Assembly: GCA_902786365.1 (NCBI GenBank)
Contig: CADACD010000013.1
Span: 779 to 64,778, forward strand
Direction of reading: 5' to 3'
DNA: 64,000 bases
DNA from: an uncultured Lachnospiraceae bacterium
GTDB lineage: Bacteria; Bacillota; Clostridia; Lachnospirales; Lachnospiraceae
The notes below the pieces were generated by a model. The model was not told the origin of the DNA. It saw only the letters and a list, made by a program, of their open reading frames with translations, and made no database searches. Below, piece after piece: positions 9,770 through 29,709 of this stretch. A program made the translations under genes and the position numbers. Every line of letters begins with the position of its first letter. Position 1 is the stretch's first letter.

Positions 9770-11161
9770 TCAATTTGGAAGTATTTTCTTTTTTATTACT
9801 TCAATTGTATTATTAAGCTGCTCATTTGTCAGAATATCAGCTGAAATCTTTTCATAGCCGTGAATCACTGTAGAATAATGTCTGTTTCCTATTAAAGAGG
9901 CGATATATGAATAGGAATCTTCTGTGAGAAGGCGACACAAATACATGGCTATCTGTCTTGGCATAGCGATATCCTGGCTTTTTTTCTTTGAGGCAATATC
10001 TGTATCAGCAAGTCCAAAATGCTCTGATACAATCTGAATAATCAGAGGGCTTGTCACTTTTACCTGCGAATTAGGGACAATAGAATCCTTTAAAATATCT
10101 TTGGCAAGTTCTAAGTTAATCTGTAAAGGTGAAATCTTTGAATAAGAAATAACCTTTGCAAGTGCACCTTCTAATTCTCTGATATTGGAAACGATATTCG
10201 TTGCAATATAATCTAAAATCTCATCATCCATATCGTAGTCTTCCAGTTCACATTTCTTTTGTAGAATTGCCATTCTGGTTTCATAATCAGGAAAAGAGAT
10301 GTCAACGGAGAGTCCCCATTCAAATCTGTTTCTTAAACGCTCCTCAAGCATTGTAAGTTCTCTCGGTGATTTATCAGAAGATATAATAATCTGTTTTTTT
10401 GCTTCATATAATGTATTGAATGTATGGAAGAACTCTTCCTGGGATCTTTCCTTACCTATAATAAACTGTATATCATCAATCAAAAGAACATCAATGTTTC
10501 TGTATTTGTTTCTAAATTCGTTAACAGCAACAGTGTTCTGATTTTCATTTCGAATGACATTGATAAGTTCATTTGTAAAAGTTTCACTTGTTACATAAAG
10601 AACTTTTTCTTTTATATTATTTTCTAATATATAGTGACCGATGGAGTGCATCAGATGTGTCTTTCCAAGACCGGAACCACCGTATAAAAACAGTGGGTTT
10701 CGTATTTCGCCAGGAGCTTCTGCTACCTTAAGAGCATAGGCATGGGCAAAATTATTGTTTCCACCGACTACAAATGTATCAAAAGTATATTTAGGGTTAA
10801 GATTGGCTTCTTTGAGCTTTATATCAAGAGAATCATCATTAATAATAACAGTATTGTGTTTCATATTATGCATTGGAACCTCAGGTTCACTTTTCTTAAT
10901 ATCTTCAGGCGCTATAAATACTATTTCAAATTCCTCGTGCATAAATTCAGCAATGGTTACTTTGAAATATTTCGTAAATTTTTTTCTGACGTATTCAAGT
11001 GCAGGTTCTTCCTCTACAACGATAGTGACAACTCCGTTTGTTACAGAATATACCTGAAGAGGTGAAAGCCATGCATTAAAAGAAACATCAGTAATATCAT
11101 ATTCCTGTTTCATATAGTCAAGTATTTCATTCCATTTGTTTTGTAATGTTTCTAACATCAT
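9770..11161 (-). CDS. dnaA: Chromosomal replication initiator DnaA
   Basis: LNPKYTFDTFVVG, Walker A GGSGLGKTHL, LLIDDIQF, NIRELEGAL, domain IV RQIAMYL. Confidence 0.99.
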   Translation of the reverse strand: MMLETLQNKWNEILDYMKQEYDITDVSFNAWLSPLQVYSVTNGVVTIVVEEEPALEYVRKKFTKYFKVTIAEFMHEEFEIVFIAPEDIKKSEPEVPMHNMKHNTVIINDDSLDIKLKEANLNPKYTFDTFVVGGNNNFAHAYALKVAEAPGEIRNPLFLYGGSGLGKTHLMHSIGHYILENNIKEKVLYVTSETFTNELINVIRNENQNTVAVNEFRNKYRNIDVLLIDDIQFIIGKERSQEEFFHTFNTLYEAKKQIIISSDKSPRELTMLEERLRNRFEWGLSVDISFPDYETRMAILQKKCELEDYDMDDEILDYIATNIVSNIRELEGALAKVISYSKISPLQINLELAKDILKDSIVPNSQVKVTSPLIIQIVSEHFGLADTDIASKKKSQDIAMPRQIAMYLCRLLTEDSYSYIASLIGNRHYSTVIHGYEKISADILTNEQLNNTIEVIKKKILPN

Positions 11162-23970: not shown

Positions 23971-23990
23971 TTTTTTTGATGGAGAATAAC

Positions 23991-24515
23991 ATGGAAAGTA
24001 AATTACTAGAACAATTGGGATTGGAAAATCTTGATCCAGCATATTTTATTTTAGGATTGATAATAATATGTATAGGTTTATTATTATATATTATTTATGT
24101 GAATAAGAAATTAACAGTATTGACAGAAAAGTATAAAAGATTTATGAGTGGCAAAGATGGAAAAACTCTTGAGCAGACAATTACAAGACGATTTAATCAG
24201 GTTGATACTGTGATGTTGGATAATAAAGAGATAAATGATAAAATAGATGCTATAAATGAAAATATGTTAAAAGTATTTCAAAAGATAGGAATTGTCAGGT
24301 ATGATGCTTTTAATGAAATGGGTGGAAAACTAAGCTTTGCTGTTGCGCTACTTGACAAAGAAAATACGGGATTTGTAATGAATTCCATGCATAGCAGAGA
24401 AGGATGCTATACTTATATAAAAGAAATTATAAAAGGGGAATCGTATGTAATTTTAGGTGAAGAAGAAAAAGAGGCGGTAGATAAAGCTGTCAATTCTGAT
24501 AATTACATGGAATAA
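23991..24515 (+). CDS. DUF4446-family membrane-anchored protein
   Basis: N-terminal TM; KIGIVRYDAFNEMGGKLSFAVALLD...NSMHSREGCYTYIK; typical position after parB in Clostridia. Confidence 0.8.
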   Translation: MESKLLEQLGLENLDPAYFILGLIIICIGLLLYIIYVNKKLTVLTEKYKRFMSGKDGKTLEQTITRRFNQVDTVMLDNKEINDKIDAINENMLKVFQKIGIVRYDAFNEMGGKLSFAVALLDKENTGFVMNSMHSREGCYTYIKEIIKGESYVILGEEEKEAVDKAVNSDNYME

Positions 24516-24595
24516 TCTGCACCAAAGTTATCTGCACCGGTACAAGTTACAAGTAGTATATATAATATGGCAGTTATATGAGGAAACGAGGAAAA

Positions 24596-25456
24596 ATGCA
24601 TAATTATTTTAGAGCAATTGGTTTTGGAAAAGGATATAAGAAAAATTTAATAAGAAGTATTATCAGCAAAACTGTGTATGATTACAGCAAGAATAATACA
24701 AAAGATACATTTGGAAAGATCATAGAAATTTTTGTTAAGTTTGATAAATCAATAGGGCTAGTAATTCATGGTGAGTTTGTTGAAAATGATAAATTTGAGA
24801 TAGAATATGTTTTTCCATATTTGAAGGCAAAAAATTTCTCTTTTTATGAAGAAATTGTCATAGAAAAGAATGTATATAATTATTCATTCTCAGCGGGGTG
24901 CGATAATAAAAGTACAGGGGTTACAATCATTTTTTATCTACAGAATGATTTGGATTATGTCAATAATCGATTTCCAAATAAACTATCAGCGGAAGTAGGA
25001 CTGTCAGGTCTCGCACTTGATGGAAAGATTATTTTTCCTGCTAAGGAATACGATGAGTATAACTCAACATATAATAAGATGATGCAGGATAAAATAAGAC
25101 TTATTACAAAGGCGCAAAATGGTGATGAAACAGCAATGGAGAACCTTACAATTGATGAAATGAATGAGTATACAAAATTGTCAAAAAGAATTATGACTGA
25201 AGATGTTTTAAGCATTGTAAATACAAGTTTTATGCCGTATGGAATGCAGTGTGACAGATATACAGTGATAGGCAAAATTCTTGATATCGAGGTTTGTACT
25301 AATAGAATTACAAAAGAGAAAATTTATAATATGACATTAGAATGTAATGAGATAATTTTCAATATTGCGATTAATGAAATTGATTTGATTGGCCAGCCGA
25401 AAGTGGGGAGAAGATTTAAAGGAAATATCTGGTTGCAGGGTGTGATTAAATTTTAA
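24596..25456 (+). CDS. DUF3881-family protein
   Basis: MHNYFRAIGF start, FYLQN, SFMPYG..CDRY, GRRFKGNIWLQG end. Confidence 0.75.
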   Translation: MHNYFRAIGFGKGYKKNLIRSIISKTVYDYSKNNTKDTFGKIIEIFVKFDKSIGLVIHGEFVENDKFEIEYVFPYLKAKNFSFYEEIVIEKNVYNYSFSAGCDNKSTGVTIIFYLQNDLDYVNNRFPNKLSAEVGLSGLALDGKIIFPAKEYDEYNSTYNKMMQDKIRLITKAQNGDETAMENLTIDEMNEYTKLSKRIMTEDVLSIVNTSFMPYGMQCDRYTVIGKILDIEVCTNRITKEKIYNMTLECNEIIFNIAINEIDLIGQPKVGRRFKGNIWLQGVIKF

Positions 25457-25785: not shown

Positions 25786-26772
25786 ATGAATTATATAGTA
25801 TTGGATTTAGAATGGAATCAGCCTATACATACAGATTCAAAATCAAATGAGATTACAAAATCAAAGTATATGTTATTTGAGATTATTGAAGTAGGTGCTG
25901 TAAAGCTGGATGAAAATTTGAATGAGATTGATAGATTTAATAAACTAATTAAACCTGTTCTTCACAAAAAAATAAATCCCATTATCAGTAATATTACAGG
26001 GATAAAAGAAAGAGATTTAAGCAAGGAAAAAAAATTTCCTGCGGTGTTTGAAGAATTTATTAATTGGTGTGGAGAAGATTATATTATGTGTACTTTTGGA
26101 AATCAGGATATTTATGAGCTTGAGATTAATATGCAATATCATAATATCAACATTCCATGGAAGTACCCATTGAAATATATAGATGTGCAAAGAATTTTTT
26201 CGATTGAAAATGATGAAATTAATGAACAGAGATCGCTTGAGATGGTTTGCATGTTTATGGGAGTATCAGGAAAAAATGCATATCACAGAGCACTCAGTGA
26301 TGCAATTTATACAGCAGAAATTATGAAAAAAATGAATCGAAATAATTTCGAAAAGTATATGTCATTAGATTATACTAATCTTCCGTTAGACAGAAGTGAA
26401 GAAAAGGAAATTAATCTTGGAACGCATTTGGAGTTTTTATCAAGAAGTTTTAAAGATAAAGAAGAAATGCTTGCAAATAAGGATATATACATCACACGTT
26501 GTCCGGTTTGTCTGAAAAAATGTAGAAAGAAGATAAAATGGTTTTCGGATGGGGCTAAATATATTTGTATGGCGAGATGTGAGAATCATGGATTGATGGA
26601 AGGAATCTTATATATAAAAAAGAATTACAATGGTTATTATATTGTGAGAAAAACGACAGGTGTAGATGAAGAACGATTTATGGATGTTGTTAAAAAAAGA
26701 AATATATTAAAAGAAAAGAGAAAAATCAGAAGAATAAAAGAAAAGGAAAAAAAGAAAAAATTCAATGATTAG
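25786..26772 (+). CDS. DEDDh 3'-5' exonuclease family protein
   Basis: ExoI VLDLEWN, EIIEVGAV; ExoIII HRALSDA; C-terminal Cys cluster (CPVC, CENHG) and basic tail. Confidence 0.85.
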   Translation: MNYIVLDLEWNQPIHTDSKSNEITKSKYMLFEIIEVGAVKLDENLNEIDRFNKLIKPVLHKKINPIISNITGIKERDLSKEKKFPAVFEEFINWCGEDYIMCTFGNQDIYELEINMQYHNINIPWKYPLKYIDVQRIFSIENDEINEQRSLEMVCMFMGVSGKNAYHRALSDAIYTAEIMKKMNRNNFEKYMSLDYTNLPLDRSEEKEINLGTHLEFLSRSFKDKEEMLANKDIYITRCPVCLKKCRKKIKWFSDGAKYICMARCENHGLMEGILYIKKNYNGYYIVRKTTGVDEERFMDVVKKRNILKEKRKIRRIKEKEKKKKFND

Positions 26773-26778
26773 AAAAAT

Positions 26779-26828
26779 AAAAATGAGAGATGTCAAAAGT
26801 CAAATGAATTTTGACATCTCTCATTTTT
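26779..26828. terminator. Bidirectional terminator (20-bp perfect inverted repeat)
   Basis: aaaaatgagagatgtcaaaa / ttttgacatctctcattttt between convergent genes. Confidence 0.85.
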
Positions 26829-26900
26829 CTCATGTTAATGAATGTTAATAATATATTTTGATTGATAAATTACAATATTATCAATATCGAATGCTTGTTA

Positions 26901-27662
26901 TTAAAAATCTTCCTTATATTTTTTAGGTAATGACTGATTAAAGTTTTCAAATAAAGTTTCAATCTCTTCAAGTAAACAGTCAACACATCCAAAGAATGCA
27001 TCATTGTTACATGGATCATCAAATTTATCACGAATCGTTGCAAGCTGGTCGATTGCTGAATTTAAACGATTTTTACCTGAATTGTTAAGATAGAGAATAT
27101 ATCTGCTTCGTTCATTTTCTTCAGGAGTCATCTTTTTTAGAGCAACTTCAACATTTGGCTTTTCTCCAATATATCTGTATGTTATCGCAGGAGAAGCGTG
27201 ATTAAATAATTGCTGCAAATAAGCAATGTCTCCTGTCGATTTATAGTAGCGCCAAGCAAATGTTTTTCTCATTGTCTGGGCACCTAAAGCTGATAAGCCA
27301 ACCTGTTTTCCAATAGTTTTGAAAACTCTGTAGGCTTGTTCGCGTGACAGAGGAGCAGAAGAATTAGGATGTCCTAAAATAAGGTAAGAATTAGGATTTT
27401 TTCCTTCTATATATCCATTAATTGCTTCTTGTACGTCTTTTGGAATTTCATATGTACGTTTCACTTTGTGTGCTCCAATATAAACATCAATTGATTTCTT
27501 TTGGTATACATCTTTGTTTTTTAGACGTAAAATATCCTGCAGTAACAGCCCAGTTCCAATACCGATTTCAAACATGATATAATACTTCTCATCTACTTTT
27601 CTAAGTCCCTGTTTGAATCGTTCTAATGTTTCATCATCTTTAATTGGAGATACCCAACCCAT
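26901..27662 (-). CDS. Tyrosine-recombinase-fold protein with degenerate catalytic site
   Basis: Short phage-integrase-like architecture (SPIKD, GIGTGL, LSREQAYR, TMRKTF, FNHASPAITYRYIG); box-I Arg is Leu and HxxR His is Gln. Confidence 0.85.
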   Translation of the reverse strand: MGWVSPIKDDETLERFKQGLRKVDEKYYIMFEIGIGTGLLLQDILRLKNKDVYQKKSIDVYIGAHKVKRTYEIPKDVQEAINGYIEGKNPNSYLILGHPNSSAPLSREQAYRVFKTIGKQVGLSALGAQTMRKTFAWRYYKSTGDIAYLQQLFNHASPAITYRYIGEKPNVEVALKKMTPEENERSRYILYLNNSGKNRLNSAIDQLATIRDKFDDPCNNDAFFGCVDCLLEEIETLFENFNQSLPKKYKEDF

Positions 27663-27825
27663 AAAAACACCTCTTTCATTTTAAGTTTCATATTCAATTT
27701 TAATATTAAATATGGATTTTTCTAAATAATTTATTGTTTTAAAACTAGCAATTAATAAGTTTAGATGTATTACAGTATTAAATAAATTCATTAGTAAATC
27801 AAATTTGCAATTAATGTATTTTATA

Positions 27826-29457
27826 TTATCTGCGTCGTCTTCTGCTTGACGAGTAAGAGATACTGTTGGAAGAAGATCTGGAATATGAGCTTCTGCGTCG
27901 TCTTTTTTTAGAATTTCTATTTGCATGAAAAATTCTGTTGTATATAAATGCAATAATTGCAAGTATTGCAAATACACCACCAAGCAGCCAGCGAATATTG
28001 ATGTTGATATATTTGTCTTTTTTTTGTTTTACAGTTGTTGGTGTTTCTTTTGCAGGTCCAAACTTAAATGATTCATCATTCTTGTGAAGAAGGAGATCTG
28101 CTTCACCTACTTTTACATCATTATAGTAGTAATTTAGTTTAGCAATTTTTGAGTCGTCAGCAACAATATCTTCATCATCAAATGTAAGTTTGGAAGTGCA
28201 GTCAGTAATTTTAATGTCTTTAGGAAGAACAACATTTCCATCAGTGCTTAGTTCTATGAGTGAAGAATCTGTGTCAAAAACACTGTTTAAATTGGAAAAA
28301 CTGCCTAATCCATTAAATGTAAATTTTGATTCGTTTTCAGATATATTGGTAAGCGCAAAATTGTCAAAGCCATAATCAAGCAGTAATCTTGTATCATTGT
28401 AAATATTTGCACCGTTTGATTTCATTACAACACTTATAAGCGTCATTCCGTTACGTTTTGCAAATGTAACAAGTGTTGAGCCGGACTGGTCAACATATCC
28501 GGTCTTGCCGCCAAGTGCACCTTCATAATAATTCTGATTAGATGGAAATAGCATTTTATGTCTGTTATATATCATTTGTGTTTCAGCATTTTTATTTGTT
28601 ACAGGTATTTCATAAGAAGTATTTGCCTCAATTTTTAAGAATTCATCAAGTTTAATTGCATCTCTTGTAATCATAGCCATATCATAGGCAGTAGTGTAAT
28701 GGTCTTCTGAAAATAATCCGTTAGGATTACTGAAGTGTGTACCAAGAGCACCGGCTTCTTTGGCACGTTCATTCATCATATCAGCAAATACAGAAATGGC
28801 AACAAGTTCTTCATTATAGTCTTCTCCTGATGCTTTGAGTTCTTCAATTTTATCTGTAAAAGCAGTAGTTCTTCTTGCTACATACTCACCAGTTGCATTT
28901 GCACATTCGTTTGCAGAGGCAAGCATAACAGCGTAGAGAGTATCTTTGAGGGACAGAAGTTCACCCTCCTGTCTTGCAATACTGGCATCACCGATCTCGA
29001 GAGAATAGACATCATAATGATAATATTCAACCATATCTGAAAGATTGCCATTTTCAAGAGCCAGCATCGTAGTCATAATTTTTGTGATACTTGCAGGATA
29101 CATCTGCTGATGGCAGTTTTTGTCATACAGAACAGTTCCTGTGGATGCCTCGATAAGTACGCCCGCCTCTCCGAATATCTCAGGGGCACCAGGCCATGCT
29201 ACATTTTTCGTAGACTCTGTCTGCGTCTGAGAATTTATCGAATCATTTACAGTGGAATTGTTATTGGAGATATCGTTTGCTGAATTATCAGAAGACTCTG
29301 TATTGTTTTGTGAAGTCTCTACAGATGTTTCCGTGGACTGTGTTTCATCTGGTTCGGCATATGTTGCTGCACAGTCACCGGCAATAAGAGAAAATGATGT
29401 GATAATTGCTAGTGACATTGTAAAAAATTTATGTAGAAATTTGTTTTTTGAATTCAT
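27826..29457 (-). CDS. D-alanyl-D-alanine carboxypeptidase (peptidase S11, PBP5/DacB-like)
   Basis: Signal peptide; SxxK in PASITK; SAN; KTG; C-terminal TM and Arg/Ser tail. Confidence 0.9.
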   Translation of the reverse strand: MNSKNKFLHKFFTMSLAIITSFSLIAGDCAATYAEPDETQSTETSVETSQNNTESSDNSANDISNNNSTVNDSINSQTQTESTKNVAWPGAPEIFGEAGVLIEASTGTVLYDKNCHQQMYPASITKIMTTMLALENGNLSDMVEYYHYDVYSLEIGDASIARQEGELLSLKDTLYAVMLASANECANATGEYVARRTTAFTDKIEELKASGEDYNEELVAISVFADMMNERAKEAGALGTHFSNPNGLFSEDHYTTAYDMAMITRDAIKLDEFLKIEANTSYEIPVTNKNAETQMIYNRHKMLFPSNQNYYEGALGGKTGYVDQSGSTLVTFAKRNGMTLISVVMKSNGANIYNDTRLLLDYGFDNFALTNISENESKFTFNGLGSFSNLNSVFDTDSSLIELSTDGNVVLPKDIKITDCTSKLTFDDEDIVADDSKIAKLNYYYNDVKVGEADLLLHKNDESFKFGPAKETPTTVKQKKDKYININIRWLLGGVFAILAIIAFIYNRIFHANRNSKKRRRRSSYSRSSSNSISYSSSRRRRR

Positions 29458-29709
29458 ATTTATACCTTTCGAAAATTTAATTTTATATGCCTATATAAAA
29501 TGACTTTAAAATTATGTATAGTTGTTTTTCGTTAGCATTTTCAAATAGGCTGTACATAAAAGTACATTGTAATATTATACACGATTGAAATTAAATATGC
29601 AACTAATTAAAGTCATTTTTTGTTATGAGAACTATTAATTTATATAATCAAACTTCGCACATAAATTTAGCGCATTCCAGCGACAGCATCATGCATCGAG
29701 TAAAAACAA

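Follow-up and report, generated by a model that had tools for sequence, protein, structure and literature searches.

The sequence evidence supports the view, held in a preliminary description of this DNA, that a protein of an uncultured Lachnospiraceae bacterium, here called X, is a repurposed (domesticated), non-catalytic host protein built on a tyrosine recombinase fold. Its family has replaced three of the catalytic residues of these enzymes, keeps its genes intact and holds them at a constant place in the chromosome. All coordinates (Table 1) refer to the window, which is the whole 64,000-nucleotide stretch of DNA that was analysed.

Table 1. Features of the X locus in the window, with strand and the basis of each assignment
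Feature	Position	Strand	Basis and remarks
X gene (degenerate tyrosine-recombinase-fold protein, 253 aa)	26901..27662	-	stop codon 26901-26903; ORF intact
Ribosome-binding site GAAAGAGGTG of X	27668..27677	-	5 nt 5' of ATG; read from sequence
X residues 1-169, catalytic-domain fold alone	27156..27662	-	PF00589, Foldseek, phrog_216
X C-terminal extension, residues 170-253	26904..27155	-	AF2: two long helices after a low-confidence linker
Arg-I position, Leu40 (Box I TGLLLQD)	27543..27545	-	alignment; Arg lost
Beta2-beta3 hairpin, I62-R69 (IGAHKVKR)	27456..27479	-	catalytic Lys of EQKTGK aligns with Ala64
His-II position, Gln129 (AQTMR)	27276..27278	-	alignment; His lost
Arg-II, Arg132, kept	27267..27269	-	alignment; 81/81 species
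His/Trp-III, His155, kept	27198..27200	-	alignment; 81/81 species
Tyr nucleophile position, Tyr164, kept in X	27171..27173	-	alignment; Phe in 8/81 species
dac, membrane-anchored Peptidase_S11 D-Ala-D-Ala carboxypeptidase	27826..29457	-	upstream of X; C-terminal TM and Arg/Ser-rich tail
DEDDh (RNase_T-type) exonuclease gene	25786..26772	+	convergent with X; Cys-rich C-terminal part, Lys-rich tail
Bidirectional intrinsic terminator of X and the exonuclease gene	26779..26830	.	20-bp stem; -27 kcal/mol on each strand, z ~ -7
Putative sigma-A promoter of dac and X	29574..29602	-	TTGCAT, 17 nt, TG-n-TATAAT; genus-conserved

Fold and catalytic positions of X

The gene had been read by eye as a full open reading frame of short-integrase type, free of stops and frameshifts, and this reading holds: the frame is intact, and residues 23-166 match PF00589 in Pfam (E 3.3e-18; 66.5 bits against a cut-off of 27.1). 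The start codon is taken to be correct because the N-terminus, MxWVSPIKD, is common to all X homologues in the alignment. The best PHROG for X is phrog_216, 'integrase' (E 4.5e-39). Both Pfam and the AF2 model show that X has no N-terminal core-binding domain, the catalytic-domain fold beginning nearly at residue 1. The model was built on 44 homologues and has a mean pLDDT of 84.7; a Foldseek search of the PDB with it returned 59 matches at E<=1e-3, which are tyrosine recombinases exclusively. XerH, XerA and Tn1549 Int stand on top, followed among others by IntI4, the catalytic domains of HP1 and P2 Int, lambda Int and Cre, and the probability is 1.00 for XerH, XerA, Tn1549, HP1, lambda and Cre. 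The X profile also matched chain 14 of PDB entry 9i5v, which was set aside as irrelevant since it carries an intact recombinase motif set. That chain, deposited as 'Ribosome-associated translation inhibitor RaiA' (401 aa), has an apparently intact tyrosine-recombinase catalytic domain with the motifs GLR..., GKRNKER, HVLRHSFA and GHDS...Y, possibly through a fusion or a labelling issue.

The helical C-terminal extension of about 85 residues that had been noticed in the sequence is modelled as two helices, residues 180-213 and 221-244, and the low-confidence linker before them spans residues 170-175. Across the family the extension is acidic (mean net charge -3.9, pI 4.9) and carries the conserved motifs ENERSRY and PxNxD..G, and the N-terminal domain is basic (mean charge +5.7, pI 9.2). 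A likeness of the extension to Talin-1 (E 0.009) was gone when the family profile was used and is attributed to chance. The most conserved segments of the alignment are GAQTMRKTFAWRYY, NHASPxITYRYIGEKPN and PLSREQAYR, with RKTFAW, NHASP and SREQAYR inside the conserved stretches, and by comparison with recombinases they would line the DNA-phosphate pocket and the helices that contact the DNA backbone.

The catalytic positions of X were placed by phmmer alignment to XerA (5hxy) and by alignments to its nearest intact relatives. The three losses that had been described are borne out: Box I reads TGLLLQDIL where TGLRISD is expected, which puts Leu40 at Arg-I; IGAHKV replaces the EKKT-like Lys region, with Ala64 at the catalytic Lys position; and HxxR reads AQTMR, with Gln129 at His-II. 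The second Arg, the His and the nucleophile Tyr were correctly said to be kept, as R132, H155 and Y164. A nearby tyrosine, Tyr162, aligns with a Leu of active relatives, and it is Tyr164 that occupies the nucleophile position.

These replacements belong to the whole family. A word-indexed search for X homologues found 750 proteins at E<=0.001, the best 120 of which are 64-89% identical to X and nearly all 245-257 aa long. Residues were tallied in 121 protein clusters from the best matches and in a set of 81 species, made up of the window and the best 80 of 216 GTDB species with an X relative. Position 40 is Gln in 74 clusters, Leu in 36, Ala in nine and Ile or Met in one each, and Gln in 70 species, Leu in nine and Ala in two; it is Arg in no cluster and no species. 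Gln129, Arg132 and His155 are invariant in the 121 clusters and present in each of the 81 species, and every X frame in the species set is intact. A conserved Lys was found at no position of the hairpin among the 121 clusters; in the 81 species position 64 is Thr, Ala, Val or Ile, and position 65 is Lys, Arg or His. Phe replaces Tyr164 in 12 of the 121 clusters and Tyr162 in three, with both replaced in the protein P0090. No X homologue above about 40% identity was found to keep Arg-I, the Lys and His-II. The losses of Arg-I and His-II are thus family-wide in clusters and species alike, and X is neither a recent singleton nor surrounded by close homologues that keep the Arg, Lys and His.

In saturation mutagenesis of Cre, the Tyr and the hairpin Lys were strictly required, each Arg accepted one substitution alone and His-II was tolerant (PMC2943603). 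The absence of Arg-I, the absence of a fixed Lys and the dispensability of the Tyr, taken in combination, argue against recombinase chemistry in the X family as a whole. The earlier suggestion that X might serve as a trans-donor of Tyr is unlikely, since eight of the 81 species have Phe at the nucleophile position.

Selection, distribution and genomic address

X is under very strong purifying selection. Pairwise dN/dS (NG86) is 0.041 (at dS 0.14), 0.013 (dS 0.40) and 0.047 (dS 1.0) in the three least saturated pairs, far below 1, and is at most about 0.2 in pairs that are saturated at synonymous sites. Between genera, X retains 64-66% identity, compared with 35-40% for Dac and the exonuclease and 52-60% for ParB. 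Within the window's genus, 13 of 14 genomes have one copy of it, and the remaining genome is 83% complete. Among 401 sampled Lachnospiraceae genomes it was found in 37, which represent 32 of 347 genera, about three of these matches being short relatives of the intact type. With each GTDB species represented by one genome, relatives turned up in 216 species, and the best 80 of these are all Lachnospiraceae or unclassified Clostridia-type MAGs.

The order of genes in the window is dnaA (9770-11161, minus strand), then, further on, parA, parB, DUF4446, DUF3881, the exonuclease gene (plus strand), X (minus strand), the Peptidase_S11 gene dac (minus strand) and a glycosyltransferase gene. Conservation of the arrangement around X is evident across the family. 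A Peptidase_S11 gene lies directly upstream of X on the same strand in all 78 loci that have upstream DNA. The two are separated by -29 to 169 nt (median about 35), several pairs overlapping or nearly abutting, and by 163 nt in the window; dac is probably the operon partner of X. Downstream, most loci have the exonuclease gene in convergent orientation at a median gap of about 65 nt; in a single one (L086) it is co-directional with X. The orientation of X is identical in all 80 loci. This trio is kept amid outer neighbours that change (V-ATPase, murT-gatD, GH42/MatE, ABC transporters), and in some genera X sits within a murT-gatD-dac-X cluster.

Where relatives have no X, dac and the exonuclease gene either face each other directly across a 48-nt gap (genome G021) or converge with unrelated genes lying in between. 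It follows that X was inserted at the dac/exonuclease junction in a single lineage, or else that other lineages have lost it, and the linkage of X to dac may reflect an inherited order of genes and not functional coupling. The convergence of the exonuclease gene with dac is itself ancestral. The Cys-rich C-terminal segment of the window's exonuclease follows the pattern CxxC...C..H, and full-length orthologues of this protein are widespread in Lachnospiraceae. At the C-terminus of the Peptidase_S11 protein (window 27826-27990; also loci L105 and L106), a TM segment precedes a very Arg/Lys/Ser-rich cytoplasmic tail, which occurs in genomes with X and without X alike.

The X gene ends at the 20-bp bidirectional terminator that had been described, whose stem is stable on either strand (Table 1). 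The earlier reading of a locus with no att duplication and no mobile neighbour also stands: no att-like direct repeats were found flanking X, the terminator was the one feature of note in a search of the surroundings for inverted and direct repeats, no mobile-element genes were seen among the scanned neighbours in the window, and the genes listed for related loci include none of a transposon. Upstream of dac, the putative promoter was missed by a consensus scan and was read from the sequence together with an upstream alignment; the genus-level footprint there contains a conserved TTGCAT/TGTATAAT promoter with an extended -10 element and no palindrome. Neither the repeat search, the k-mer survey nor the genus footprint found a conserved operator or inverted-repeat site near the X locus. 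The k-mer survey, which covered 75 dac upstream regions, found a promoter-like TGTTATAAT-ATGTGATGTA block alone, in about 20 loci of several genera. It consists of TTGAAA or TTGTAA, 17 nt, TGTTATAAT and then a conserved ATGTGATGTA (L033, L035, L044, L062, L072 and L090, for example), is absent from the window, and possibly combines a promoter with an operator or an initial-transcribed element.

The origin-proximal address of X is conserved. In the window dnaA and X are 15.7 kb apart. The two genes share a contig in eight of 13 other X-bearing genomes tested, at distances of 12.6, 14, 14.3, 15, 15.6, 26, 39 and 54 kb; in the remaining five they are on separate contigs, which are uninformative on distance. 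The position near oriC given in the preliminary description is therefore right, with the refinement that it is a property of the whole dac/exonuclease neighbourhood, because parB-DUF4446-DUF3881-exonuclease is also present in a genome without X. In the window the DUF4446 and DUF3881 genes follow parB at 23976-25456, and the order parB-DUF4446-DUF3881-exonuclease recurs in other genera.

Ancestry and relation to known recombinases

An exhaustive HMMER search of 1.84 billion representatives gave 2295 matches to X at E<=1e-3. Beyond the core family these include a few proteins of about 242-260 aa that are 31-48% identical to X, possess the extension and have likewise lost catalytic residues, though not always the same ones: one of these distant long homologues has Arg-I and lacks the Tyr, and another has Lys at His-II. 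They also include a large set of proteins of about 180-190 aa that are 33-42% identical to X over its residues 1-168 and have the full catalytic motif set, in the form TGLRISD, EQKTGK, GTHTLRKTF and NHSSPSITLRY. A tblastn search placed such small recombinases on 2144 records of plasmids and 223 of phages, the plasmid hosts being Enterococcus, Bacillus, Lactiplantibacillus, Lactococcus, Clostridium and others.

These small recombinases of Firmicutes plasmids and phages (phrog_216) are like X in having no core-binding domain, and the N-terminus MxxVxPIxD is common to both. Their size and build are similar to those of FimB/FimE-type invertases, and they are annotated 'site-specific integrase'. 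They differ from X in keeping R-K-H-R-H-Y and in lacking the extension of about 85 residues, a few having a non-conserved one; X shows the opposite on both counts. Their domain is more basic than that of X (+10.6 vs +5.7), and they reside on mobile DNA, whereas X is fixed beside dac. In Streptococcus phage Javan623 (L102:3501-4058) and other Javan phages, intact single-domain recombinases of about 185 aa are encoded away from the prophage end, in the middle of the genome, where early genes give way to late ones and the large terminase gene follows a few genes on. They may serve there in multimer resolution or in regulation; a literature search found nothing on a late-regulator role of small integrases.

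A quick maximum-likelihood tree places the long degenerate forms in one clade (SH-aLRT 89), with the member that retains Arg-I basal and the dac-linked core nested inside, and is compatible with stepwise loss of the catalytic residues. One basal degenerate member, P0130, is encoded on a plasmid-like contig with Rep3 and ParB genes nearby, and its stop codon and the start of the adjoining MobA/MobL relaxase gene overlap; it may be a relaxosome or oriT accessory protein. Another adjoins rmuC and lexA. Given the setting of these basal members, the loss of catalysis may have begun before fixation in the chromosome. P0130 (L099:396-2398, contig CBDRQG010000045.1) has Ser at Arg-I and Lys at His-II, and its identity to X is 41% in the HMMER search and 38% in alignment A2.

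Among characterised proteins, XerA (5hxy) and XerH (5jk0) of the XerC/XerD/XerA group are the best PDB matches of X in sequence and structure. Xer resolvases have a core-binding and a catalytic domain; X lacks the core-binding domain and three catalytic residues. Against the XerC and XerD models TIGR02224 and TIGR02225, X scores 28.8 and 30.3 bits (cut-offs 335 and 330), the catalytic part alone aligning, and the source genome has separate Xer-like genes besides X. Against the FimB and FimE models NF007371 and NF007370 it scores 13.3 bits (cut-off 222), and beyond the terminator it has no flanking inverted-repeat pair of note.

Two degenerate recombinases are precedents. The streptococcal XerD-like protein/YnbA is a chromosomal recombinase homologue that lacks two of the R-H-R-Y residues and has no recombination activity (PMC1914069). 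This group (S. pneumoniae XerD, Reichmann & Hakenbeck 2002; L. lactis YnbA; NF002685) resembles X as a conserved chromosomal homologue with catalytic losses, and differs from it in lineage, in keeping the N-terminal domain, in missing the extreme C-terminus, and in context and taxon; at 19.3 bits against a cut-off of 178, X is not a member of NF002685. In Tn7-like transposons of the Tn6022 type, targets are selected by TnsF, an inactivated derivative of a tyrosine recombinase (PMC10293859), which like X has the recombinase fold with catalysis lost, in its case used for DNA recognition or bending. It carries N-terminal zinc fingers and tandem CB-like domains and is encoded inside a transposon; X, which has the catalytic domain alone, no N-terminal domain and no sign of a Tn7-like/Tsy element among the neighbours scanned, is set apart from it by the description of TnsF.

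Across NCBIfam, X had far sub-threshold matches alone (XerA, XerD, XerC, integron integrase, XerD-like and Fim invertases), none of the PADLOC defence models matched it, and a search for a named family model specific to X found none. Members are labelled 'tyrosine-type recombinase/integrase' by NCBI, and no paper on the family, or on a recombinase linked to dac or to Lachnospiraceae, was found in the literature. Dead recombinases are a known kind of protein, and X is a new family among them, with a distinct build of a catalytic domain and a helical hairpin.

Possible roles of a degenerate recombinase

We hold with moderate confidence that X is a DNA-binding protein that does not cleave, that oligomerises through its helical hairpin and that is co-expressed with the carboxypeptidase. 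Its ancestor would have been a small, catalytic-domain-only tyrosine recombinase of Firmicutes plasmids or phages that was exapted, and the acidic two-helix extension would have been gained or retained in the ancestor of some Lachnospiraceae. Having lost Arg-I, the hairpin Lys and His-II, the protein should no longer be able to cleave and rejoin DNA, and its gene would have become fixed in the chromosome, in one copy, at the 3' end of dac in the origin-proximal region. The recombinase fold would still bind DNA without cutting it. We propose DNA binding because Arg-II, His-III, the RKTFAW pocket and the PLSREQAYR helix are kept and the domain is basic (pI ~9.2); the affinity may be weak or need partners, since a core-binding domain is missing and the charge of the domain is less positive than in its active relatives. 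Also counting against this reading are the failure to find a conserved operator near the locus and the chance that the linkage to dac is inherited order alone. Some active recombinases, such as IntDOT, are said to lack a canonical Arg-I. X would probably act as a dimer or oligomer held together by the C-terminal hairpin, as a regulatory or architectural DNA-binding protein made together with dac.

X might instead be a pseudoenzyme that acts away from DNA, its pocket or hairpin binding a protein or a phosphate-bearing ligand in the service of the carboxypeptidase or of cell-wall synthesis, for example by way of the Arg-rich cytoplasmic tail of the carboxypeptidase. The invariable same-strand linkage to dac, the murT-gatD-dac-X cluster of some genera, the lower positive charge of X compared with active relatives, the acidity of its C-terminal domain and the failure to find an operator would all suit such a role. 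We nevertheless think it unlikely: the most conserved segments of X are those that line the DNA phosphate pocket in recombinases, and the dac tail is equally present in genomes that have no X. To our knowledge, moreover, no role away from DNA is known for the tyrosine-recombinase fold.

A more specific proposal, which we regard as speculative and quite improbable, is that X, as a DNA-binding factor of the origin region, links the organisation or segregation of the chromosome to remodelling of the envelope. If so, X made from the dac transcript would attach to sites close to the origin, would be in communication with the machinery of the cell wall, and would be a clade-specific analogue of origin-tethering or nucleoid-occlusion factors, made from a dead plasmid or phage recombinase.

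There is a small chance that X is a dominant-negative decoy, a defence factor directed at the related small recombinases that plasmids and phages bring in, whose binding sites it would occupy or whose assemblies it would poison. Its closest relatives are indeed plasmid and phage recombinases, and it has lost the chemistry and kept the fold. However, it is unlike defence genes in evolving very slowly and vertically and in standing as a single copy at a fixed locus among housekeeping genes, PADLOC has no match for it, and hetero-assembly is doubtful when the putative targets are only 33-42% identical.

Slimmer still is the prospect that X remains an active recombinase or invertase at a non-canonical site, for instance with an Arg or a Lys supplied from elsewhere or by a partner subunit. 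Most members of the X family keep Arg-II, His-III and the Tyr, and position 65 is always basic. Cre likewise tolerates changes at His-II; at the hairpin, however, Lys alone works in Cre (PMC2943603), whereas position 65 of X varies among Lys, Arg and His. The Arg-I position varies among Gln, Leu, Ala, Ile and Met, and in about 10% of species the nucleophile is Phe in genes that are otherwise intact and syntenic. No flanking inverted or direct repeats were found, and the locus has one orientation throughout the 80 loci.

That X is a pseudogene in progress, the decaying remnant of an integrated element, would fit its lost catalytic residues and its place between convergent genes, a typical neutral landing site, but is refuted by intact frames in 81 of 81 species, dN/dS of 0.01-0.05 and conservation greater than that of ParB, which bear out the preliminary description in reading a selective loss of catalysis with the fold kept as domestication and not decay.

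We know of few cases in which dead recombinase folds are kept as host proteins (streptococcal XerD-like/YnbA and TnsF), and the functions of these are mostly unknown. The X family adds a clean, datable example whose ancestry can be traced to small plasmid and phage recombinases, to which a new C-terminal module has been added, and which combines extreme constraint with a fixed address behind dac near the origin. Because X is present in cultured gut and rumen Lachnospiraceae, among them Bovifimicola, Hominisplanchenecus, Jingyaoa, Muricoprocola and Eubacterium album, the last with a natural Y164F form, its function is within experimental reach. The family also bears on how these genomes are read, since X genes annotated 'tyrosine-type recombinase/integrase' could be miscounted as markers of mobile elements.
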